Assembly (NCBI RefSeq): GCF_011745625.1
Contig: NW_027191470.1
Coordinates: 248,001 to 312,000 of the forward strand
Length of the DNA stretch: 64,000 nt
Origin: Cladosporium halotolerans
Taxonomy: Eukaryota
Reading direction: 5' to 3'
Position numbers and translations under genes: made by a program. Positions 1-62,998 of this stretch are shown piece after piece (the first letter of the stretch is position 1; the number at the start of each line of letters is the position of its first letter). Below the pieces are notes generated by a model, which was not told the origin of the DNA, did no database searches, and saw only the letters and a list, made by a program, of their open reading frames with translations.

Positions 1-2575
1 TGTCCAAGCCCTTCTCCGCCCTCTCAAAAGCCTCATCGCTACGGTCCGTAAGGATTGCCAAATCCTCATCGCTAAGCAGATTCTTGCCCTCGGCGATATC
101 GATCGCCTCGCCATCAGACTGGCCGAGCAACTTCTGCAACTCCGCAAAGTCAGCGCCGGCAGTGTCGCTGCGCATAGATTTGAAGCGGCCCTTCTGGATC
201 ACGAGCTTCTCCAATCTGCGCTTGCTGTCGGCCTTCTCCAGAAGCATCTGCTCGACTGTGCCCTTGGTAGCGAAGCGATAGACGATGACAGGCCTTGTCT
301 GACCGATTCTGTGCGCTCGGTCTTGGGCCTGGAGATCCTGCTGCGGGTTCCAATCGCTGTCGAAGAGAAGCACAGTATCGGCGGCAGCGAGGTTGATGCC
401 TTGGCCGCCGGCCCGTGTGGACAGGAGGAAGATGTTAGTCTCGCTTTCAGGGTCATTGAAAGACTGGATCTGCTCCTGTCGGTCTACTTGGGCGATTGAG
501 CCGTCGATGCGGCAAGTCGGCCATCCTCGAAGGACATCGCAGTATGTCTCCAGCAGGTCAAGCTGGGTCTTGAATTGCGAAAATATCAGCACCTTGTGAC
601 CCTTATTGAGTAACTCTGGCAACAATCGATCCAAAAGGAGCATCTTGCCACTCTCGGTGACCAGGGTTTCGTCCACGGGCGTATTATCATCCATTTCAAA
701 TGGGTAGTAGAAGTTGTGGGGAGAGTTGCAACATTGCCGCAATTGCATGACTGGGTTCTGGAGCTTCTTCTGGGCAATCTCACGCTTGGCCAGCGCAAGA
801 GTCTTCGCTCGCTCGCTCTCTTCCTCGTCTTCCTCGTCTCCGTCTGGCAATGGTGACTCAGGCTCTTCTTCCAGCTGTTTGAAGTACTTCGTATCAGATA
901 GCTCCTCATATTGCTGGTTTTTCTTAGCTTTCCGTGAGCGAGTTCCGCTGCCATTTGCAGTCGCCGGCGTTGACGCGCGGCTTGTCTTGGTACTCTTCGA
1001 CGGCGTTGCAGTCTCGTCACTTGCCTTTCGTTTACGGCTCGTGCTGCGTGTGCTTCCCGGAGTCGCGCTGCGGCTGATACTCTCAACGATTTTGTTTTCC
1101 AGAAACGCCCTGCTGTTGCCGTCAAGAATCTCCTGGTAGAGGTCCCGCTGAGTTTGTGTCAAAGGCGCATAGAGCACGTACTCGCGTTTCTGCGGTAGTG
1201 ATGTCTCTACGTCGGCTTTGATCCTACGCAGCAAGAATGGCTTCAAGACGGCATGGAGACTGGTGACAAGCTTCTTCTGACGGTCTTCCGAAAGAATTTG
1301 TTCGTAGCCGCCCTTCTCCTTCAGCGCGCTGAAATCAAACCACGATTCGAATGATTCGAAATTGTTGAAGATGCTAGGCATCAAGAAATGCAGAAGTGCC
1401 CACAGTTCGGCCAAATTATTTTGAAGCGGTGTTCCAGTGATCAGCAATCGATTCGCGGATTGGTAGGATTGCAGTTCCTGGATAAGTCTGCAGTTCATGT
1501 TCTTGATGCGGTGACCCTCGTCGATAATGATAAACTTCCAGCCATAGTGAGCTAAGTGCTTTCGATCGTTCATGCAGATCTCGTAGCTCGTGCAAATGAC
1601 GGGGAAGTCTTTGCTGCTTGGGTTTCGCAGTCGTTTCTTGCGAAGCTCCTCGCGTTCTTGTTTGCTTCCGTGGTAAAGTACGACAGGGATGTCAGGCGTC
1701 CATTTCTTGAACTCAGCGACCCAATTGCTGGTAGTACTCAGGGGTGCAGCAATGAGGAACGGTCCATTGATGCCCTTCTCCCGCAGGAAAGCAAGGAATG
1801 AGATAACTTGAATCGTCTTTCCTAAACCCATCTCATCTGCCAATATTCCGTTCAGTCCGTTCTCATACAATGACTGTAGCCATTCCAAGCCTTCCAGCTG
1901 GTATGTTCGCATGAGCCCTCCTGTGACCAGATCCGGCTGCTTGGCTGATCGCAAGTCTTGCATGCCAATATCGCTAGGTTTGACATCATCCTTCGACTCC
2001 TCCGCTAGTGCCTCTGAGATAGACGCTTGCCCAGCTTTGGCTTCTAAATCCTCCTTCTTCAAGTAATCTGAGATTTTGCCGGTCTTTCCGGCTCTGGTGT
2101 TCTTTGCTGGCCGCCCGCGGCCGCGTTTAGGAGGATCTTGATCATTTGCATCCGCGGGGGATTCGGTAGTCTGTTCGTTCGTGTTCCCTCTCCTTGTTGC
2201 ACGCTTTTGGCTTGCTACCGCCGCTTGTTCTGCCTTTTCTTCCTTTTTCGCCGCGCGCTGCTTGCTCTTTTCGTCTTTCGCAGTCGCAGCCTCTTCTTGT
2301 TGCGTCATCTGCTGCAACATGATCGTAGAATACAGCTTGCTCTGGCTCAACAAATATTCCAGAGCTTTGTACTTTGTGTCCACTGCGTCCGGTCCTCCCT
2401 TAAGATCCTTTTCGCGCTCTGCGGCTAGCTTACGCTCGCGTTTCGCTTCCTCTTTTTCACGAGCCTGTGCCATCTGCGCTTCCTCCTTCTGCATAGCTTC
2501 TGTGGGTCCATTGTCGCGCGTCTCGGGAGATGTTGGTGGTGTTGTTTCGGCCGAGGCCATTGGTTCTGAAGACAT
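1..2575 (-). CDS. IRC5: SNF2-family chromatin remodelling ATPase, LSH/HELLS/DDM1/Irc5 type (3' end outside the window)
   Basis: ATG at 2575 (ccaccATG). Minus-strand motifs ILADEMGLGKT, IIDEGH, TGTPLQNNL, LSTRAGGQGINL and QDLQAQDRAHRIGQ; the first and last were checked to be in frame with the ATG. Absent from the ORF track because it runs off the edge. The subfamily call is inferred from the N-terminal coiled coil and QPDLVTGG region. Confidence 0.85.
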   Translation of the reverse strand, partial: MSSEPMASAETTPPTSPETRDNGPTEAMQKEEAQMAQAREKEEAKRERKLAAEREKDLKGGPDAVDTKYKALEYLLSQSKLYSTIMLQQMTQQEEAATAKDEKSKQRAAKKEEKAEQAAVASQKRATRRGNTNEQTTESPADANDQDPPKRGRGRPAKNTRAGKTGKISDYLKKEDLEAKAGQASISEALAEESKDDVKPSDIGMQDLRSAKQPDLVTGGLMRTYQLEGLEWLQSLYENGLNGILADEMGLGKTIQVISFLAFLREKGINGPFLIAAPLSTTSNWVAEFKKWTPDIPVVLYHGSKQEREELRKKRLRNPSSKDFPVICTSYEICMNDRKHLAHYGWKFIIIDEGHRIKNMNCRLIQELQSYQSANRLLITGTPLQNNLAELWALLHFLMPSIFNNFESFESWFDFSALKEKGGYEQILSEDRQKKLVTSLHAVLKPFLLRRIKADVETSLPQKREYVLYAPLTQTQRDLYQEILDGNSRAFLENKIVESISRSATPGSTRSTSRKRKASDETATPSKSTKTSRASTPATANGSGTRSRKAKKNQQYEELSDTKYFKQLEEEPESPLPDGDEEDEEESERAKTLALAKREIAQKKLQNPVMQLRQCCNSPHNFYYPFEMDDNTPVDETLVTESGKMLLLDRLLPELLNKGHKVLIFSQFKTQLDLLETYCDVLRGWPTCRIDGSIAQVDRQEQIQSFNDPESETNIFLLSTRAGGQGINLAAADTVLLFDSDWNPQQDLQAQDRAHRIGQTRPVIVYRFATKGTVEQMLLEKADSKRRLEKLVIQKGRFKSMRSDTAGADFAELQKLLGQSDGEAIDIAEGKNLLSDEDLAILTDRSDEAFERAEKGLD

Positions 2576-2774
2576 GGTGGCGTATGAGCCCGAAAGGATG
2601 AAATGCTTCGGTTTGCACCACTCGGGCGATAACAATTCAATGCTTGTATAATTGAAGAAGATCCGAGAATAAAGAAAATGCCAAATGTGTCAAACACTCA
2701 AGAGGCAAAGACATCAGTAGCGATATAGAGTGGAATGGCGACGATGTCATCACTTTCGAAAAGCACGAGCCTAC

Positions 2775-2793
2775 ACGCGCGCGCGCGACGCGA
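2775..2793. promoter_or_regulatory. CGCG/ACGCG (MCB-like) cluster upstream of the SNF2 ATPase
   Basis: ACGCGCGCGCGCGACGCGA about 200 bp upstream of the ATG. Confidence 0.4.
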
Positions 2794-3526
2794 TCGTGGT
2801 GGAGTGGCACCAGCAGATCGGATCGCGCCCTGTCAGATCGCTATGGGGGAGCTGCATGAAGCTAGTCCGCATCAAGCACAGCCAACTCCAATAATCCTAC
2901 CCACACCACGTTCGTCCTCACCATCTGCCGCTATCATACCTCAAAAATGGCAATGAGAGCCTCGAGGAAAGCATCCACGATCAGAAGCGTATGCTACTCC
3001 GTCGCAACGGCAGGAGACTGTCATTGACCATGATGCCTTGGTAATTGCAGTGGTTTCATTCGTCAAGTGGAATTCTAAAGATCTCTTGTAAGATATAGTA
3101 TCCCGCTGACTAAGTTGACCTCACTCTTCGGCGATGCCAATAGAGCCGAGATACCGATCAGTAGCGTTGGCTGATCGCAGCTGTATATGCCATGACACTA
3201 AGCACAATCCTATTCTGCATCCCCACGCCCGCGGAACTATCGCCCAGATTCATGCACCCCACTTGCATCGACGTCTCTGCGATTTCGTCACGAAGGATTG
3301 CTGCGCTCATACAATTCACGGTCGCGACTTCTACAAGTAGGGAGTGCAACCACGTCACACTCTCCTCGAGCTCGAGGCGTGCCTGCCTCGTTCACCATCG
3401 CAAACATGGACCTCCAACACTGGGCAATCCGCGATCTGCGGCCAATCAACCAATTCACTTTATCATACCAACTCTGTATTTCACCAAAGCATAGCTTATC
3501 AGCGCGACGCCTCAGGGCAGACTACC

Positions 3527-4768
3527 ATGGCACCGGTGACCCCCAACGAGGGCCTTGGCCGCGCCAGGCGCCAAATCCGCCCGACGCAACGAGCAATTGA
3601 GTCTGACCTTCACATCTCCGGCATAAATACTCCACCGCAATCCACTATAACATTGAGGAGTCGTCCTTCCACACTCGCATCATCGAAAATTCTGGATAAC
3701 CCATCGCTCGCCATGGATCGTTCCGTCAAGACCGAGACTGCTGGCGCTGTGCGAGCTATCGTGAAATCTCCGACTAAGTTTACGGTTCCACCGGCTCATG
3801 AGGGATCTGCCGCCCTGATGCCTCAACAAGGTGTTGCGAACAAGAAGAGCGCTGCGGACAAGAGGGACACCGCGAAACCACCCCGGAAGACTCGCAAGAC
3901 AAAGGCTACCACCGACGCTGTGCGGAAAGCAGCTCCTCAAACGAGGAAGAACGCTGCGCCACCTAAGGACCCCCAAAGCTTTGACACAGACGAACCGCTA
4001 CTGCAGCCTTGGAGGTTCGCTGTCTATTTCTGGGAGACTCCAAGACCTACAGACTTCCTCAACCTCCCAGAATCCAGGAAGCAATGGAAAGCGGACATCG
4101 ATGCCGACATGGAAGCTGCTGACGATTCCCCGGAATTGGACGACTGGCACGACTTCTGCGGTGTTATCTCGGATCTCGTGCCCGACCTTACACTCCAACA
4201 GTCCGTGGCGCTCAATTTCGTGTCGCGAGGCAAACGAGCCTTCCGCGCAGGGCGCTCCTGGAAGAGCTTCGAGGAAGAGGAGCTCGCCATCGACAGCAGA
4301 GCAGGCGCAAGAGCTATTGCCGATCCCATCGAACGCGATATCGCCCTCTCATCGTCTCTCGACAACGACTACAGGCTCTACATCTTCGGCCAGATCAAAG
4401 TGCGCTTGTGCCACGAGATCTGGCTGCAAGCATATCCTTGGCCAGGCACCACGCCGGAACCAGAGGAGCCAACGAAGAAGAGAGACAGTGTCATCAACCC
4501 GGGCGCTGTGACGCCTTCGTCGCCTAGCCCTCCCAAAGTAGAGACTTCAGGTAGTGCCAACTCCTCCAGCGGACTTCCTCCGCTTCCTCTGACAGAAGGT
4601 ACACAGGGCCGCACAAAAGCTGAGCTACCGGGCGACAGAGAGCTGCATCAGCCTCAAAGCCGGCGATTCCGTGCGACGCAAGCGAATATGCAGGGTCTGA
4701 ACCTCTCCTATGAAGAACAGCTTGAAGGTATAGGACTAGACATGGCGACGAGTAGCGAAGAGGAATGA
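3527..4768 (+). CDS. Hypothetical protein (~413 aa): basic, disordered N-terminus and a Trp-rich central domain
   Basis: Long ORF 3344-4768 with a good Kozak ATG (accATGg) at 3527; no recognisable domain. Confidence 0.65.
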   Translation: MAPVTPNEGLGRARRQIRPTQRAIESDLHISGINTPPQSTITLRSRPSTLASSKILDNPSLAMDRSVKTETAGAVRAIVKSPTKFTVPPAHEGSAALMPQQGVANKKSAADKRDTAKPPRKTRKTKATTDAVRKAAPQTRKNAAPPKDPQSFDTDEPLLQPWRFAVYFWETPRPTDFLNLPESRKQWKADIDADMEAADDSPELDDWHDFCGVISDLVPDLTLQQSVALNFVSRGKRAFRAGRSWKSFEEEELAIDSRAGARAIADPIERDIALSSSLDNDYRLYIFGQIKVRLCHEIWLQAYPWPGTTPEPEEPTKKRDSVINPGAVTPSSPSPPKVETSGSANSSSGLPPLPLTEGTQGRTKAELPGDRELHQPQSRRFRATQANMQGLNLSYEEQLEGIGLDMATSSEEE

Positions 4769-32649: not shown

Positions 32650-33690
32650 TTACTTCTTCTTCCTCCCCCTACCACCTCGAGCAGGCCTCCCTCTGCCCCT
32701 CCCACTTCCACCCCTGCCAGATCGAGGCGCAGGAGTATTATCCTCGCTCCCCTCCTCTTCCTCCTCACTGCTCTCCTCATCCTCATCGTCCTCTTCATCC
32801 TCGCCTTCCTCCCCCTCACTCTCACTCTCACTCTCCTCATCCTCCTCCTCCTGCTCCGGAGCCTGCCTCGCCGACCTTCTCCTATTCCCCGCCGGCGCCT
32901 CCTTCGCCGCCTGCGCCCCGGCCCTCGCACTCGTGCTCCCCTTCGGCCGCCCCCTCGGCCTCTTAACCTGCTCCTCCACCTCCGGCGTCACAACGGGCTC
33001 CTCGCTCTCCGCCCTCGCGCGCAAACCCCGCACATAGCCCAGCGGCGGCTCGCGGTCCATGTTCACCTCGGGCAGCACGGCGGGGCTCTCGCTGCCGTCG
33101 CGGCGCTCCTTCGCGCCCGGCAGGCGGCGGCGCCACGCCTCGTCGGCCACGAACGCGTCGTCGTCCGGCAGCGCGAACGGCGCCGAGTGGATTTTGTTGC
33201 CCGCCAGGCTGTAGACGTCGTCTTCGGGCGCGGAGTCGTCGGAGGCGGAGGACGCGCGCGAGTCCGCGACGTCGGACAGCTGGCGCGCGTCTTCGCGCTC
33301 GTCGAGCGACTCGAGGTCGTAGAGCGTGGCGAGTTTGGCCCAGAGGCCGGAGATCGAGGTGTGGGGGCTTTTGGGGTGGATGTAGCGGTTGTCGAGGAGG
33401 TATTGGCGGATTTGGAGCATGCGGAAGTGTTTGTGGATGCCTGGGGTGTTGGGGTTAGTTAAGGGATTTTTTGAGAGCAGCCATTGAGAGGGTATGGGTG
33501 GCTCACCGGTCGGCTTCCATTTCACGACGGCCTTGAAGAGCCCGATGGCTTCCTCGTCGGTCCACGGGTCGTTCAGGACGTCTTCATCTGGTTTGCTCGG
33601 AGACTGCGCGGCAGGCGTTGGTGTTTTGTGCTGGTCAGTCGCAGCAGGCGAGGTCGCCTGTGATACTCGCGCACGCTTTTTGGGCGGCAT
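32650..33690 (-). CDS. EAF7: NuA4 subunit Eaf7 (CT20/MRGBP family); one 66-nt intron (33506-33441)
   Basis: DPWTDEEAIGLFKAVVKWKPT|GIHKHFRM, GLWAKLATLYDLESLDERE; AT-hook-like RPRGRPK; acidic tail. Confidence 0.88.
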   Translation of the reverse strand: MPPKKRARVSQATSPAATDQHKTPTPAAQSPSKPDEDVLNDPWTDEEAIGLFKAVVKWKPTGEPPIPSQWLLSKNPLTNPNTPGIHKHFRMLQIRQYLLDNRYIHPKSPHTSISGLWAKLATLYDLESLDEREDARQLSDVADSRASSASDDSAPEDDVYSLAGNKIHSAPFALPDDDAFVADEAWRRRLPGAKERRDGSESPAVLPEVNMDREPPLGYVRGLRARAESEEPVVTPEVEEQVKRPRGRPKGSTSARAGAQAAKEAPAGNRRRSARQAPEQEEEDEESESESEGEEGEDEEDDEDEESSEEEEEGSEDNTPAPRSGRGGSGRGRGRPARGGRGRKKK

Positions 33691-52003: not shown

Positions 52004-54720
52004 ATGGTCAAGTAAGTCGACGTCGAACCGCCGAGGGTGCTGTCCGCGGCGAGAAAGAGCGCAGAGGACAGCTCCGGGCGCCCCGGAATGTGGTGGAGGG
52101 CGAGACGGGCGAGCAGAGCAGCCAGCTGACAAGATGCGCCCAACAGCTTCACCGTCGAGGAGATCCGTGGTCTCATGGACAACCCCAAGAACATCCGTAA
52201 CATGTCCGTCATTGCTCACGTCGACCACGGAAAGTCCACCCTTACCGACTCGCTCGTCCAGCGTGCCGGTATCATCTCCGCCAAGAACGCCGGTTCTGCG
52301 CGTTTCACCGACACCCGTGCCGACGAGCAGGAGCGTGGTGTGACCATCAAGTCCACTGCCATCTCCCTCTACGCTCACCTCGAGGACGAGGAGGACCTCA
52401 AGGACATCCCCATTCCCACCGAGAAGAACGAGTTCCTGGTCAACTTGATCGACTCGCCTGGTCACGTTGACTTCTCTTCCGAGGTCACTGCTGCCCTCCG
52501 TGTCACCGACGGTGCTCTCGTCGTCGTCGACACCATTGAGGGTGTCTGCGTTCAGACCGAGACTGTGCTCCGCCAGGCTCTCGGTGAGCGTATCAAGCCC
52601 GTCCTTGTCATCAACAAGGTCGACCGTGCCCTTCTCGAGCTCCAGCTCGGCAAGGAGGACCTTTACCAGAACTTCTCTCGTGCCATCGAGTCCGTCAACG
52701 TCGTCATTGCCACCTACTTCGACAAGGTCCTCGGTGATGTCCAGGTCTACCCCGAGAAGGGTACCGTTGCCTTCGGTTCCGGTCTTCACGGCTGGGCCTT
52801 CACCATCCGCCAGTTCGCCGTCAAGTACGCCAAGAAGTTCGGTGTTGACAAGAACAAGATGATGGAGCGTCTCTGGGTAAGCATCTCCTATTTTCCGTCA
52901 AGTGGCCGCAGAATGTCCGCTAATAAGCATTGTAGGGTGACAGCTTCTTCAACCCCAAGACCAAGAAGTGGACCAAGTCCTCTGACGACGGTGTTGAGCG
53001 TGCCTTCAACCAGTTCTGTCTTGAGCCCATCTTCAAGATCTTCGACGTTGTCATGAAGGGCAAGAAGGAGGCCGCCCACGGCCTTCTCGAGAAGCTTGAC
53101 ATCAAGCTTGTTGGTGAGGAGAAGGAGCTCGAGGGCAAGCCCCTCCTCAAGGTCGTCATGCGCAAGTTCCTGCCTGCCGCCGACGCCCTCCTCGAGATGA
53201 TGGTTATCCACCTGCCGTCTCCCGTCACTGCCCAGAAGTACCGTGTTGAGACTCTCTACGAGGGTCCTCAGGACGATGCCTCTGCCATCGGTATCCGTGA
53301 CTGCGACCCCAAGGGTCCCCTCATGGTCTACGTCTCGAAGATGGTGCCGACCTCTGACAAGGGCCGTTTCTACGCTTTCGGTCGTGTCTTCTCTGGTACC
53401 GCCAAGTCTGGTATCAAGGTCCGCATCCAGGGCCCCAACTACCAGCCCGGCAAGAAGGACGACATGTTCCTCAAGTCCATCCAGCGCACTATTCTCATGA
53501 TGGGTCGTTACACTGACCCCATCGAGGATGTGCCCGCCGGTAACATCCTTGGTCTGGTCGGTATTGACCAGTTCCTGCTCAAGTCTGGTACCCTCACCAC
53601 CGACGAGACCGCCCACAACATGAAGGTCATGAAGTTCTCCGTCTCCCCCGTCGTGCAGCGCTCCGTCGAGGTCAAGAACGCCAACGACCTGCCCAAGCTC
53701 GTCGAAGGTCTCAAGCGTCTGTCCAAGTCCGACCCTTGCGTCCTTACCTACATCACCGAGTCTGGTGAGCACGTCGTCGCTGGTGCTGGTGAGCTCCACC
53801 TTGAGATCTGCTTGAAGGATCTCGAGGAGGACCACGCCGGTATTCCCCTCCGCATCTCCGACCCCGTCGTCCAGTACCGTGAGTCCGTTGAGGGCGAGTC
53901 CAGCATGACCGCTCTCTCCAAGTCTCCCAACAAGCACAACCGTATCTACCTGACCGCCGCTCCCCTCTCTGAGGAGGTCTCCAAGGACATCGAGTCCGGC
54001 AAGATCGGCCCGCGTGACGACTTCAAGGCCCGCGCCCGTATCCTCGCTGACGAGCACGGCTGGGACGTCACTGACGCCCGTAAGATTTGGTGCTTCGGTC
54101 CCGACACCAACGGTGCCAACTTGCTCGTTGACCAGACCAAGGCCGTCCAGTACCTGAACGAGATCAAGGACTCCGTCGTCTCTGGTTTCCAGTGGGCCAC
54201 CAAGGAGGGTCCCGTTGCCGAGGAGCCCATGCGCTCCGTCCGCTTCAACATCATGGATGTCACCCTCCACGCCGATGCCATCCACCGTGGTGGTGGACAG
54301 ATCATCCCCACTGCCCGCCGCGTCCTGTACGCCGCCACCCTCCTCGCCAACCCCGGTCTCCTCGAGCCCGTCTTCCTTGTCGAGATCCAGGTCCCCGAGA
54401 ACGCCATGGGTGGTATCTACGGTGTCCTCACCCGCCGTCGTGGTCACGTCTTCGAGGAGAACCAGCGTCTGGGTACTCCTCTGTTCTCCGTCAAGGCCTA
54501 CCTGCCCGTCAACGAGTCCTTCGGTTTCAACGCCGACCTCCGCGCCGCCACCTCTGGCCAGGCTTTCCCCACCATGGTCTTCGACCACTGGCAGATCCTC
54601 CAGGGTGGTTCCGTCCTCGACAAGACCTCGATGACCGGCAAGATCGTCGAGACCATGCGTATCCGCAAGGGTCTCAAGCCCGACGTTCCCGGCTACGAGA
54701 ACTACTACGACAAGCTCTAA
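52004..54720 (+). CDS. EFT2: Translation elongation factor 2; 3 exons (introns 52012-52146, 52877-52935)
   Basis: [38 protein letters not shown], diphthamide loop [15 protein letters not shown]-terminal NYYDKL; strong codon bias. Confidence 0.98.
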
Positions 54721-55527
54721 GCTTGTGCGTAGTAAGCATGATGGAATGGCGGCAAACGGTCACAAAAGTTTCGAGCACAGATGGATGCCACACGTCGCTG
54801 CCGCCGCCGCTCCCCTAATCGGGGTCTGGCAGCGGACAGCGCAATTTCTCTCTATAGTTGGCAGATAGACCGCCACGCGATGCAATGATTGACACGATCA
54901 TAAGGGGGACGGTTTTTTTCTAGAAAAAGAAATAAGACGAAATGACAAGAGTGGAATGGTTCTTTCCTTTGTATGCTTTTGGTTTGTGACATCTTGTCTC
55001 GATTTCAATCGTTTTGCATTCATTAGATGGGTATGCTTCGATTTTCCCTTGGTATACTTGCGTGATTCTGATGTTTATTGTGTCCACGCTCAGGCTCAGG
55101 TCGATTGTCCCGTCACCACAGTGCCGGCGCTCAGTGGGCCTGCACCTCAGGTGTTTTTGATGTTTGCAAAGATGAGATAATGCTCCAGAAAATTATAGAT
55201 GCCCTTGCAATAGCTGAATAATGGAGACAGGATATTTTATCTGCCATGAACGGGGCCGTTGATTCGCCGGCGTGTGTGAAGGCACCACCTGACGCGGCGG
55301 GCGTGTGATGCTCCAGTTTGGATGGACCCTGTGATGTTGCAGCAAGCAAGCCTGCAGCTTGCGAGAAACAGCATCATCGCGAATTGCGCTGCCTGGAAGC
55401 CACGCCACGATCTTAAGCCGGTCTCTCGATTGCTGAAGTACACATTCGTCGCTGTACAGACAGGGCTGCGGAATCTGCGAAGATGCAGTAAAGCACAAGA
55501 GCTTGGAAAATACACGCGCTTTAGGCC

Positions 55528-57655
55528 ATGGCTACTTCAAGCCCCCTCAACACCATGGGCGGCGAACAGAACGAGCCTTCCGGCACGGGCTCTGGGTTTG
55601 GGAGGATTGTTCTTATTTTGGCGGGTGTCTCTTCACTGGTCGCCTGTCTCCTCACTATCCTGTATGTCGCCTACCCTTGCGAAAGCGCGCCAAAGTATAC
55701 CATACACAACCATTTCGGCCACTGACCAACTCTTCCCTCCCAGCACGACGATCCTCCAATCCAAGAACTACCGCAAACCCCTCCTCCAGCGCCATGTCAT
55801 CCGCATCCTCATGCTTGTCCCGATCTTCAGCTGTGCCTCATGGGCCAGCCTTACCTCCCTACGAGTCGCCTTCTGGATTGACCCCCTCCGCGATGTATAC
55901 GAGGCTTTCGTGCTCTACACTTTCTTCCAACTCCTCATAAACTTCCTCGGCGGTGAGCGCAGCCTCATAATCATGATGCACGGCCGTCCACCCGTGGACC
56001 ACCTGTGGCCTTTGGACTACGTGCTACCCAAAGTCGACATTAGCGACCCTCACACCTTCCTCAGCATCAAGAGGGGCATTCTGCAGTATGCCTGGATCAA
56101 GCCTGCGCTCGCTATTGCGACGCTTGCCATGAAAGCGACGGGGACATTCAGGGAGGGCATCATTGCAGTGGACTCGGGATACTTCTGGACAAGTTTGATC
56201 TACAACGTCAGCATCTGCTGGTCTCTCTACGACCTCGCGCTGTTCTGGGTCTGCATGAGCGCAGACTTGCAGCCTTTCAGGCCGATGCCCAAGTTCCTCG
56301 TTATCAAGGGCATCATCTTCGCCTCCTGGTGGCAGGGCTTCTTCCTCTCCATCCTCGTATGGCTGGGTGCGATCCCGAGCATAGGCGGCGGCTACACGGC
56401 GGACAACCTGGCGGCGGCGATCCAGGACGCGCTAATCTGCTTCGAGATGCCCTTCTTCGCGCTCGCGCAGTGGTACTCGTTTAGCTGGAAGGACTTCGCG
56501 GACGTCACCATCTCGGACGCGCGCATGCCCATGCGGTTTGCCTTCAGAGATGCCTTCGGGCCGCGCGACCTCATTGAGGATGCGAAGGAGACGTGGAGCG
56601 GGCAGAAGTACGACTACAGGTATTTCGATGCGACGGACAACGTCATGGCGCACGAGGATAGCACGAGCAGGGCGGCGAGAATGCAGGCGGGCATGAGGTA
56701 TGAGCGAGGCGGGCGCGGCAAGTACTGGATCCCTTCGCCTGGAGCGGATGCGAAACAGCCGCTGCTCTCCAGGTGGGCCGATAGCCACGCGAGGACAATG
56801 AGCCCTGGCAATGGGAGGCACGGCAGCCGTTCGAGCAGCAACACGGGCACGAAGGGCTACGGCACACAAGTGCAGCCCGAGGAGCCCGAGCTCGACGCCG
56901 AGGAGGAGAGACTGTACAAGAAGTCGCGCGACCTCGAGTACGGCGACTGGAACTACCCCGTTATCAACACGCACTACGCCTCGCGCGAGGACCGCCTGCA
57001 CGCGGATCCCAACATGCTCTCGCAGACCACCAACCGCGCCATCCTCCAGCCCACCAAGGACAACAAGCAGCGACGCAAGAGCCGCATTCAGGACATCCAA
57101 GCCAACGTCCACCAGCACGACAACCCCTCCTCCGACCAAGCCAGCGGCAGCCACGGCAGCTCCTCTAGCAAAGCGCAGAAAGCGGCATCCAATCTCCCCG
57201 TCGTCGGCAAACTGCTCCGCGAAAACTCCTCCGACTCCGCGCAGTCCCACTCCAGCCAGCTCGTGGACCTCGTCGTCGAAGACCACGAGGCCGAAGCGAT
57301 CGAGCGCGTGCGCGCGCGCAAAGAAGGCGGGCCCGGCTGGAACAGCGTCGAGCAGCGGCACTTCGTCAAGACGTACCCGGACGAGCCGGAGCAGGAGGAG
57401 GTGCGCCAGGGCTTTAACCCGGACCGACCGGAGAAGGCGATCACGGACGAGAACCACACGCTCGACGAGCCGTTTGCGCTCAACGATAGCGAGAACGACG
57501 ACTTGGAAGCGGTGGTGGACGAGCCCGGGACGGACGAGACGGCGCACGAGCAGCCGTGGGAGAATAGGATTGTGGGGGATGGGAAGGGGAAGGGGAAGGA
57601 GAGGGAGAGAAGGAGTCCGGACATTCCAGAGGAGAGGAATCCTTGGTCTGATTGA
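55528..57655 (+). CDS. TMEM184/OST-alpha (DUF300, Hfl1-like) membrane protein; intron 55662-55743
   Basis: KNYRKPLLQRHVIRILMLVPI, RDVYEAFVLYTFFQLLINFLGGE, KRGILQY, PKFLVIKGIIFASWWQG, IQDALICFEMP; start at 55528 or 55555. Confidence 0.9.
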
Positions 57656-58086
57656 GCGGTGATCGTGGCTTGGTGTTTGGTCTACTGCTCCGTTGCTGCT
57701 GCACTTAGCGATGGCGTTTTTTTTGTCCCTATCTTAGGGATGTGTTCTTCATGTACATGTGTCTCGATGTCAACTTTTCTCTTCATTGTGCCGTTTGACG
57801 ATGCTTGTACGATCTTTCTTTGCTTCGTCACGCTCTGTTTATTTCTGTGTCTCAAAATCTTCCATGTCCGCCCGAGACGTGATTTGATAGTGAGGGTCAC
57901 CGTGTGTCGTTGCTTCGGTGACGTCGAACAGCGCAGCAGCAAATCGACACGGTGCACGACAAAGAAGCTCCAGCGCACAATGTACGTAGTATATCATATT
58001 AGTAGAATCGGGAAACGTTGATGGGAACATCAAACATGAGAAGCTCTGCAGTCAAAAAGACGTTGAATGATATCTGACAGATGAGA

Positions 58087-58111
58087 GGGTTTAGTAGGGT
58101 TAGGGTTGGGG
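58087..58111 (+). repeat. Interstitial telomere-like G-tract with G-quadruplex potential
   Basis: GGGTTTAGTAGGGTTAGGGTTGGGG. Confidence 0.7.
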
Positions 58112-58224
58112 TTGCGTAGTTAAAATCGACCAGATGATGACAGCGCAGGACGATGGCTACTAAGCCAGCCGGTCTGACAGCGTAACTGTGGAGTGGCATG
58201 CTGAACTGAGATCAATTGTTGAAA

Positions 58225-58706
58225 GTTGACTCGAAAAGGGAAGAAATGCAGACCGCCACTAGTGTCAAGTGTACAGTGCCCAATGAGCTCTCAGCCGCGC
58301 CTGTGTGTAAGTGAATTGACACCTCCCAGCGGATTTAATTCGAATAGTAAAAGTTGACTCGAGTTCGGGAGATATGCGAGCACCCACTAGCGTCAAGTGC
58401 CTAATGTCCAATCAGCTCTTCGCCGCGCCTAGGTGTAAGTGAATTAGCAAATGTTAGTGAACATGTTGCAAATAAAATAATAAAATGTTGACTCGAGTTC
58501 GGGAGATATGCGAGCACCCACTAGCGTCAAGTGATCAGTGGCCAACCGGCGCTCAGCCGCTTCTTCATGTAAGTGAATGACACCATGGTATTATTTCAAA
58601 TATAAAGGAAAAAATGTTGACTCGAGAAGGGAAGAAATGCGACCACCCGCTAGCGTCAAGTGACCGGTGGCCAATCAGCTCTGACCGCGCCTGCGTGTAA
58701 GTGAAT
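58225..58706. repeat. Array of four 91-92-nt conserved units separated by unique 36/42/37-nt spacers
   Basis: Units start with GTTGACTCGA at 58225, 58353, 58487 and 58616, and end with TGTAAGTGAAT at 58316, 58444, 58578 and 58706. Confidence 0.95.
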
Positions 58707-59001
58707 GCCACTTTGATGTTTTTCTCAAGATAATAAGATAATGGAGAAGAGAAGACATGCAAGTAGCCGCCAAGCATGTGGAAAGATTTAGAGCGAGAAC
58801 GTCTCATATATCAAAGATGTCTACAAGACACTAACCAGCGACAGCCGCATTCATCATCACCATCCAGGTATCAAAAGCCCCTCGTAACCATGGTGTCCTG
58901 ACAGTCCAACCCAATGCCCCTCAAACGCCCAATACACGCCACGCAAGTCGCTCAAACATCAAAGACCAAAAAGCACCCCCAGACCTCATACTACTCGTCG
59001 C

Positions 59002-61740
<2,739 letters not shown>

Positions 61741-61953: not shown

Positions 61954-62998
61954 TAAGCGGATTTAGAGTTTAGTGCTTGCAGCTCCCGGCCATCACCCTA
62001 TCACGTCTCTTCATCTTCAAGGTGTCACTTCACTTACGTCTCTACACACGAACCACGTGGACGCGCATCATTACGCGCATTGTATCTCAAAAAACCCGGG
62101 TGGTCCCGTGCACGACCATGTTGTCATGGTACGCGCACGAGCAAGATGAGATTGGAGAAGGTAGCAGCGTACCTACTATGGCCAAGTATATATTGCCAAA
62201 ACATCTTGAGACCTCTTCCACTCGAAGGTACAAGTGTAGATTTCGCCGTGTTCAGCAGGTCCTAACAACCGAATATGCATGCTCTAGGCGAAATGACTTC
62301 TTTGTTCACCACAAGCCGCGAACGAACATTCATCGCAATTCAAACAAAGGCATGGTTTCCTCATTTTGGATTTCATCATTCGGATCTTGACGGTTCTCGC
62401 ATTCTGCACTTAACAGTATGATTTAGATCTTAAGTCGAAAAGATGGCTTTCTGGTGGGGCATCACATCAATGATCCGATCTAGTGCACCCGAATGTATTC
62501 CACCGAGCCGCATTATCGCTCCACTAACACAGAATTTTGGATCCAGCATCAGCAGAGCAGGCGCCATCACTAAGCATCAAACAGCATTGGCTACCCGAGA
62601 CGGAGGACGAGGCAGCGATGTAAGCGTCAAAGATGGGTACCAGCTACAGAAGCGCAACCTAAGCGATAGGGAAGCGAAACTGCCTCGAACCTTGAATGCG
62701 AACCCAGCACCCAGTACATATTGCCTCACGGGAACAAATTACGAATGGATGCAAAAGTCAGATCAAAACATGGAACATCAATGGAAACAGACTTGACAAC
62801 GGTGCAAGCGATTGCAGAAACAGAAATCATTTGAAGAGAAGCGAGGAATACGGCACGATGAAATATATCTATACAGGATCCTGAATGAGGAAATAGCTCT
62901 ACAATCAAGCCCAACCCTTAGACTCGTGAGAATGGATGGCCCCCCTCGTCGCTCATCGCAAACAACGCAAACCCCGACATCACAGTTTCCCCCCTGAA

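Follow-up and report, generated by a model that had tools for sequence, protein, structure and literature searches.

The conserved units between the Ostalpha/TMEM184-like gene and MCM3 are copies of a tandem repeat of about 130 bp, present four-and-a-bit times, rather than elements of a repeat-spacer system. The array belongs to a low-copy dispersed family with at least two or three other loci. We favour, with roughly even confidence, the reading that a ~130-bp segment derived from this family was duplicated in tandem long ago and gave a non-genic, minisatellite-like array that evolves in concert. An initial annotation of the window (the whole 64-kb stretch of DNA that was analysed) had instead seen conserved cores of fixed length, thought to be under selection, with unrelated spacers between them.

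Structure of the array

Four head-to-tail units were located within positions 58221-58707 (Table 1), with core lengths of 92, 92, 92 and 91 nt and intervening spacers of 36, 42 and 37 nt. A repeat search recovered four 96-nt copies whose starts lie 128, 134 and 129 nt apart, TRF reported a period of 134 with 3.5 copies (74% matches, score 423), and an nhmmer profile of the four units matched every unit at E 7e-30 to 4e-28. The units, lengths and spacers of the initial annotation were confirmed, and the six invariant blocks that it had named were all found in the units. Elsewhere in the 64-kb window the next best place for the profile reached only E 0.44, and a 16-nt core pattern was confined within the window to the four unit positions. 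The array is the sole long-period tandem repeat in the 64-kb window. The only other tandem repeat there with a TRF score of at least 60 is a TCC/TCCTCC-rich low-complexity tract at 32741-32857 (periods 6, 9 and 21; TRF scores 61-63).

Core-versus-core identity was 75-85%, and GC content was 0.51-0.57 in the cores against 0.21-0.39 in the AT-rich spacers. Every unit ends, on the plus strand, in an invariant GTAAGT. CCAAT is present in three of the four units and reads CCAAC in unit 3, and the TTGAC/GTCAA inverted pair measures 5 bp only. The longest invariant blocks, GTTGACTCGA (10 nt) and TGTAAGTGAAT (11 nt), adjoin the spacers.

Metagenome scans with two core patterns returned no stretches with the first and seven with the second, at one match each. 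These seven were rejected as relatives: only the pattern blocks were common (longest BLAST match 19 nt), as expected by chance. Full-text literature searches with four core motifs gave, among the matches listed, only unrelated sequences, apparently from primers or cloning, and among the matches listed for fungal minisatellites none was pertinent.

Table 1. Coordinates of the array, its parts and the two flanking genes
Feature	Position	Strand	Remarks
Ostalpha/TMEM184-like gene	55280..57655	+	3' end toward array; Pfam Solute_trans_a, E 5e-94
Unit 1 core	58225..58316	.	92 nt; a-type 5' half; nhmmer E 4e-28
Spacer S1	58317..58352	.	36 nt; GC 0.39
Unit 2 core	58353..58444	.	92 nt; b-type; first 47 positions equal to unit 3; E 7e-30
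Spacer S2	58445..58486	.	42 nt; GC 0.21; S1-S2 and S2-S3 each z 2.4
Unit 3 core	58487..58578	.	92 nt; b-type; CCAAT changed to CCAAC; E 2e-29
Spacer S3	58579..58615	.	37 nt; GC 0.24; S3-S4 z 3.0
Unit 4 core	58616..58706	.	91 nt; a-type; 1-nt gap; E 3e-28
Spacer-like S4	58707..58743	.	Homologous to S3; 71% repeat pair, z 3.0
Decayed partial fifth unit	58743..58772	.	Without GTTGACTC start; GAGAAG.GAAGA.ATGC block in register
MCM3	59002..61347	-	3' end toward array; Pfam MCM and WH_MCM3_C

Spacer homology and the right edge

Spacer similarity was measured by global alignment scored against 300 shuffles. An alignment as good as the real one was obtained in 1 of 300 shuffles for S3 against S4, in 3 for S2 against S3 and in 6 for S1 against S2. 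The repeat search also paired 58557-58605 with 58685-58733 at 71% (family D2). The spacers had been described as unrelated and impossible to align, a description that does not hold given this mutual homology (z 2.4-3.0) and the 71% repeat pair; they are weakly similar, diverged homologues. Identity between spacers was 50-64%, compared with 75-85% for the cores.

At the right edge, 15 of 17 positions of a fifth unit matched in register at 58743-58760, and none of 200 shuffles was as good. The nhmmer match to this unit (58744-58772) was insignificant by itself (E 6.1). The left flank, 58087-58220, showed no similarity to the repeat period (z -0.8 to 0.1). Because the spacers are homologous and the fifth unit is in register, the array constitutes a ~130-bp tandem repeat in which the AT-rich third has diverged faster.

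Mosaic units and substitution pattern

Units 2 and 3 were 100% identical over the first 47 core columns and 67% identical over the rest. Units 1 and 4 had the other 5' type in common, with 5' halves 83% alike, as the initial annotation had seen when it described the units as mosaics. Along the array the 5' halves run a-b-b-a. The full 5' identity of units 2 and 3, set against 67% in the remainder, is the signature of a short tract of conversion or unequal exchange with its start exactly at the core boundary.

Substitutions summed over the six core pairs comprised 57 transitions and 54 transversions. RIP produces transitions, and the pattern is therefore not RIP, in agreement with the many transversions remarked on earlier.

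Invariant columns made up 61 of the 92 core positions. Permutation tests of their clustering returned p 0.24 when scored by the longest run (11), 0.05 by the sum of squared runs and 0.03 by the presence of three runs of at least 8, and the invariant columns are thus clustered marginally beyond random placement. Selection on the cores had been argued from block-wise conservation. The blocks themselves stand; however, with marginal clustering, homologous spacers and a visible conversion tract, selection on cores between freely diverging, unrelated spacers is not established. Conversion tracts homogenise the alignable part of a repeat and skip the indel-ridden AT-rich part, so that conserved-looking cores may appear without selection.

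Flanking genes and their transcripts

The convergent TMEM184-like and MCM3 neighbours named in the initial annotation were confirmed by Pfam matches. The stop codon of MCM3 lies at 59002-59004, the low end of the ORF. Since the Ostalpha/TMEM184-like gene is on the plus strand and MCM3 on the minus strand, the array sits between two 3' ends. RNA contigs ended at 57724-57912 for the Ostalpha/TMEM184-like gene and at 58811-58863 for MCM3.

The RNA contig sets came from two samples of one study (X2 and X3) and from another study (X16). All three represent spliced RNA and skipped the same introns, at 55661/55744, 61335/61388 and 61611/61668. The skipped segments, 55662-55743, 61336-61387 and 61612-61667, have GT..AG ends on the coding strand, which confirms them as introns of the Ostalpha-like gene and MCM3. 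Long stop-to-stop ORFs accordingly overstate the exons at the 5' ends of these two genes.

Two further observations concern neighbouring transcripts. X2 and X3 RNA contigs skipped 49 nt at 62228-62276 (+), in the next gene, with GT..AT ends and a one-letter ambiguity of placement; the gap reflects either a non-canonical intron or a shift in the alignment. At 54500-54955 RNA contig depth was 20-70x that of the neighbours (about 1100-4600 versus 54-132), and a highly expressed gene thus ends there.

The array in a close relative and related loci

In the X6 run, DNA from a close relative, 217 of 8001 positions differ (2.7%) and there are 21 gaps. A single X6 contig spans this whole 8-kb stretch and keeps the array with the same unit number. 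In this one comparison with a relative no variation in unit number was seen. Only two indels, of 1 nt each, were found in or just after the X6 array: an extra A behind 58683, through which unit 4 measures 92 nt in X6, and a missing letter at 58719 in S4.

Contigs of the runs were aligned to the 8-kb stretch at a likeness of at least 85%. Five X6 contigs aligned and, besides the orthologue, two of these carry array-like pieces. X6 record 18, at single-copy depth, has an a-type unit start (matching 58619-58659) and a b-type start (matching 58356-58396) 131 nt apart, each 36/41 alike. The spacer before its first unit has GCAAATAAA and an AAAATG end in common with S2. In X6 record 15 the junction of unit 1 and S1 (58299-58324) recurs, 24/26 alike. 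Since record 18 carries an a-type unit and, behind it, a b-type one, the two unit types are older than dispersal.

An RNA contig of X2 and X3 matched 58407-58445 (a unit end), continued with 28 other letters and then matched 58614-58655 (a unit start). It is bordered on both sides by sequence unlike the array, and it represents a different, transcribed locus with unit-spacer-unit structure. By eye, 19 of the 28 middle letters agreed with S3 over ungapped positions, and the left loose end of the contig had the 11-mer CACCTCCCAGC in common with S1; spacer types thus travel with units. The contig retains the part from GTAAGT into the spacer, and its RNA is therefore unspliced at GTAAGT. Both paralogous units that were read had CCAAT, and in both the distance from CTAGCG to CCAAT was 15 nt, as in the array (by eye).

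The depth of this transcribed paralogue was ~5x that of the MCM3 contigs in one study (266 versus 54 in X2, 342 versus 70 in X3). No RNA contig of X2, X3 or X16 lay on the array of the window itself; absence of cover is no evidence here, and small RNAs would escape poly(A)-type libraries. The apparent depth in bins 58238-58771 (X2/X3) came from the paralogous contig (266.1 x 39/267 = 38.9; 266.1 x 42/267 = 41.9).

A telomere-like tract, GTAGGGTTAGGGTTGGGGTT, was observed at 58094-58113 (+), 110 nt left of the array. The same 19-28 nt also occur on three other X6 contigs (records 15, 16 and 17), one of them 464 nt from the contig end. The tract could be an interstitial telomeric remnant or a TTAGGG-binding-factor site; such sites occur in Tbf1-type promoters. 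A reading of the minus strand of 58094-58113 as a telomerase-RNA template was dropped because the 19-28 nt recur on the three X6 contigs and no matching 5' splice-site motif was seen by eye on that strand.

Possible binding-site modules

On the strength of its motifs, the array might, as the initial annotation had also proposed, consist of composite protein-binding (cis-regulatory) modules and be a candidate enhancer, insulator or fail-safe terminator between convergent genes. Each unit would carry a CCAAT box, a TGACTC bZIP half-site and an imperfect inverted pair, TTGAC(T/G)C.AG, and the spacers would serve as nucleosome-poor linkers. CCAAT is presumably bound by the CCAAT-binding complex, and TGACTC is taken by us to be a bZIP half-site. 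The better preservation of cores than of spacers, the fixed core length and the unit number shared with X6 are consistent with such modules. So are the retention of CCAAT in three of the four units and in the paralogous units, and the position of the two longest invariant blocks at the spacer borders. However, the clustering of invariant columns is marginal, every motif could come from one ancestral copy, and unit 3 has lost CCAAT. The array also lies at the 3' ends of both neighbours, where it has no downstream gene to drive. We therefore consider this explanation tentative and its probability modest, clearly below even.

Mobile-element tests

The best inverted pair flanking the array joined 58133-58159 with 58832-58858 (27 nt, 70% complementary) and scored 11, with +1 for a match and -1 for a mismatch. 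This score was equalled in 17 of 40 dinucleotide shuffles, and any terminal inverted repeats are thus at chance level. A 4-bp ACCA was seen by eye on both sides, and as a target-site duplication it was not above chance with the boundaries left free. No transposase-like or retroelement ORF was found near the array. Dispersed pieces at a likeness of at least 85% were present on two other X6 contigs and on one RNA contig in X2/X3.

A relationship to transposons had been one of three candidates in the initial annotation. The related unit-spacer-unit pieces elsewhere agree with that proposal, while the presence of such pieces on only two other X6 contigs and a flanking inverted repeat at chance level do not. 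In its full form, this explanation would make the array a mobile-element remnant: internal or subterminal tandem repeats of a non-autonomous DNA transposon, or repeats of a retroelement LTR or UTR, that were dispersed to a few loci and then decayed. It would account for pieces with the same unit and spacer types on other contigs, one copy of which is transcribed, and for a and b types older than dispersal. Against it stand the very low copy number (two of five aligned X6 contigs besides the orthologue), the inverted pair that shuffles readily reproduce, the lack of an element ORF nearby and the lack of a RIP-like excess of transitions. These results suggest that a mobile-element origin is unlikely.

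Coding tests

Units 3 and 4 have an ATG start with A at -3 and stay open for 28 codons up to GTAAGT, and this frame is open in three of the four units. No frame was open in all four units, as the initial annotation had stated when it reported no conserved ORF. Variable core columns were spread over the codon phases as 11/9/11, which indicates that the units are not coding. When a 39-aa stop-to-stop frame was compared with 1.84 billion representative proteins, the single match was a translated satellite. This match was rejected as an artefact of 13 identical repeats (8/25 identities per repeat), in what is a weak test with a short query.

The units could in principle be decayed copies of a 5' gene module, made up of a start codon, ~27-28 codons and a 5' splice site, or duplicates of an exon plus a short intron, and thus pseudo-exons of an expressed paralogue. 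The open frames of units 3 and 4, an exon-like part of 81 nt in units 1-3 and the transcription of a paralogous copy would fit this origin. However, units 1 and 2 have no ATG, the 1-nt gap gives unit 4 a different splice phase, and in the transcribed paralogue, which is unspliced, the GTAAGT-spacer part is kept. Together with the interrupted frames, the even spread of variable columns and the artefactual protein match, these findings make a pseudo-exon origin very unlikely.

The transcribed paralogue also raises a functional reading, to which we give only a very slim probability. The arrays would be a small family of functional modular loci built from a 92-nt module with a CCAAT box and an unspliced consensus 5' splice site, and the copy in the window would be a conditionally silent member. 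If so, the row of exposed 5' splice sites in the transcript might capture U1 snRNP and thereby lead to nuclear retention or surveillance or act as a silencing trigger. Alternatively, each period might be a promoter-plus-first-exon cassette giving alternative first exons.

Small-RNA tests

Rfam gave no match in the array at E up to 10 and nothing in the whole window at gathering scores, and ARAGORN found 0 tRNA-like genes. Single-unit folds, four per strand, were in 8 of 8 cases less stable than the shuffle average (200 shuffles; z +0.28 to +2.0). The consensus fold was -6.1 kcal/mol on the plus strand, with 2 of 21 pairs compensatory, and -9.3 kcal/mol on the minus strand, with 0 of 15, from four sequences that lend the counts little power. 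Rfam and covariation analyses of the cores, both suggested in the initial annotation, thus yielded no match and 2 and 0 compensatory pairs.

The minus-strand T-runs after the units were T3, T4, T4 and T6, so there is no uniform Pol III terminator, and three of the four runs are too short for a fungal one. The earlier candidate of tandem small ncRNAs ending at a Pol III terminator finds no support, given these runs, the weak folds and the lack of Rfam or tRNA matches. A C/D snoRNA reading of the units was rejected as well, no C or D boxes being seen by eye.

Tandem small or modular ncRNAs, whether ~95-nt minus-strand Pol III products or plus-strand RNAs with an exposed 5' splice site, are the least probable explanation: a T-run follows each unit on the minus strand, the invariant GTAAGT ends each plus-strand unit and a related array is present in RNA, but in addition to the results above no conserved Sm-like site was seen by eye in the spacers, and the paralogous RNA contig runs continuously over unit, spacer and unit, which argues against discrete small RNAs.

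Two snoRNA-like segments were noted beside the array. On the plus strand, 58129-58212 has by eye a box C/D snoRNA-like layout (ATGATGA at 58134-58140; CTGA at 58174-58177, about 58201 and 58207). It had no match to Rfam snoRNAs at E up to 10, and its terminal stem is only about 3 bp. On the minus strand, 58821-58903, in the presumed MCM3 3' UTR, gave a weak match to Rfam snoR9 (C/D box; 12.8 bits, E 5.3). This match was rejected as probably due to chance, being far below the gathering score of 90 and without a D box by eye.

Comparison with known systems

The array resembles a minisatellite or tandem duplication under concerted evolution in its head-to-tail ~130-bp period, decayed edge unit and conversion mosaic, and in being non-coding and intergenic. 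Classical minisatellites are usually more homogeneous and variable in length. In contrast, the units of the array are old (75-85% alike), their number is the same in a relative at 2.7% difference, and divergence within the period is strongly uneven.

Known tandem arrays in mobile elements include central or subterminal repeats of non-autonomous DNA transposons and repeats in LTRs or UTRs. The array is like these in having few units of ~100-200 bp at several dispersed loci, some of them transcribed. It differs in having neither terminal inverted repeats above chance nor an element ORF, and in the two to three other loci detected.

CRISPR-type arrays likewise alternate conserved and variable segments of roughly constant length. 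Here, however, the repeats are 92 nt long and 75-85% alike, the spacers are mutually homologous and the context is eukaryotic.

Tandem small-RNA gene arrays, such as polycistronic snoRNA clusters and spliced-leader RNA gene arrays, also have ~90-nt units and short AT-rich spacers, and spliced-leader RNA genes are further similar in that the units of the array also end in a 5' splice-site-like motif. Unlike such genes, the units have no C/D or H/ACA boxes, Sm site, stable or covarying structure, or Rfam match. Spliced-leader trans-splicing is not known to occur in fungi.

Introner-like elements of Dothideomycetes are described as hundreds of near-identical copies within unrelated genes, where they are spliced (PMC4457414). 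By that description, the array shares with them a fungal host, a short repeated element and a consensus 5' splice site, but it is intergenic, tandem and low-copy, its conserved part lies mostly upstream of GTAAGT, and its transcribed paralogue is unspliced.

Origin and significance of the array

The concerted tandem duplication that we favour draws support from the head-to-tail periods of 128, 134 and 129 and from the more diverged, truncated unit at the right edge. Such edge decay is typical of tandem arrays. We infer that unequal crossing-over or replication slippage multiplied a ~130-bp segment. Short gene-conversion tracts within the array, and probably also conversion with the few related arrays at other loci of the genome, would then have restored some uniformity to the GC-richer 92-nt part. 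The AT-rich third, through faster substitutions and small indels, may have fallen out of the conversion tracts. The outcome would be apparent conserved cores with variable spacers, probably without any sequence-specific function. CCAAT, TGACTC, GTAAGT and, in units 3 and 4, ATG would most simply be inherited from one ancestral segment rather than being four independently maintained sites.

The contrast between core and spacer, the fixed 92-nt core, the stable unit number in X6 and the transcribed paralogue count against a purely neutral reading and fit some constraint or use.

As read here, the array is a well-preserved, diverged tandem duplication in a compact fungal genome and matters little in itself. 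It illustrates how a repeat-spacer design can be imitated by short tracts of conversion together with an AT-rich segment that evolves fast, and it counsels caution: block-wise identity among only four paralogous copies is poor ground for inferring selection. If the cores were constrained across species, or if the transcribed paralogue were a modular ncRNA, these fungi would possess a new, small family of repeated modules, regulatory or RNA in nature.
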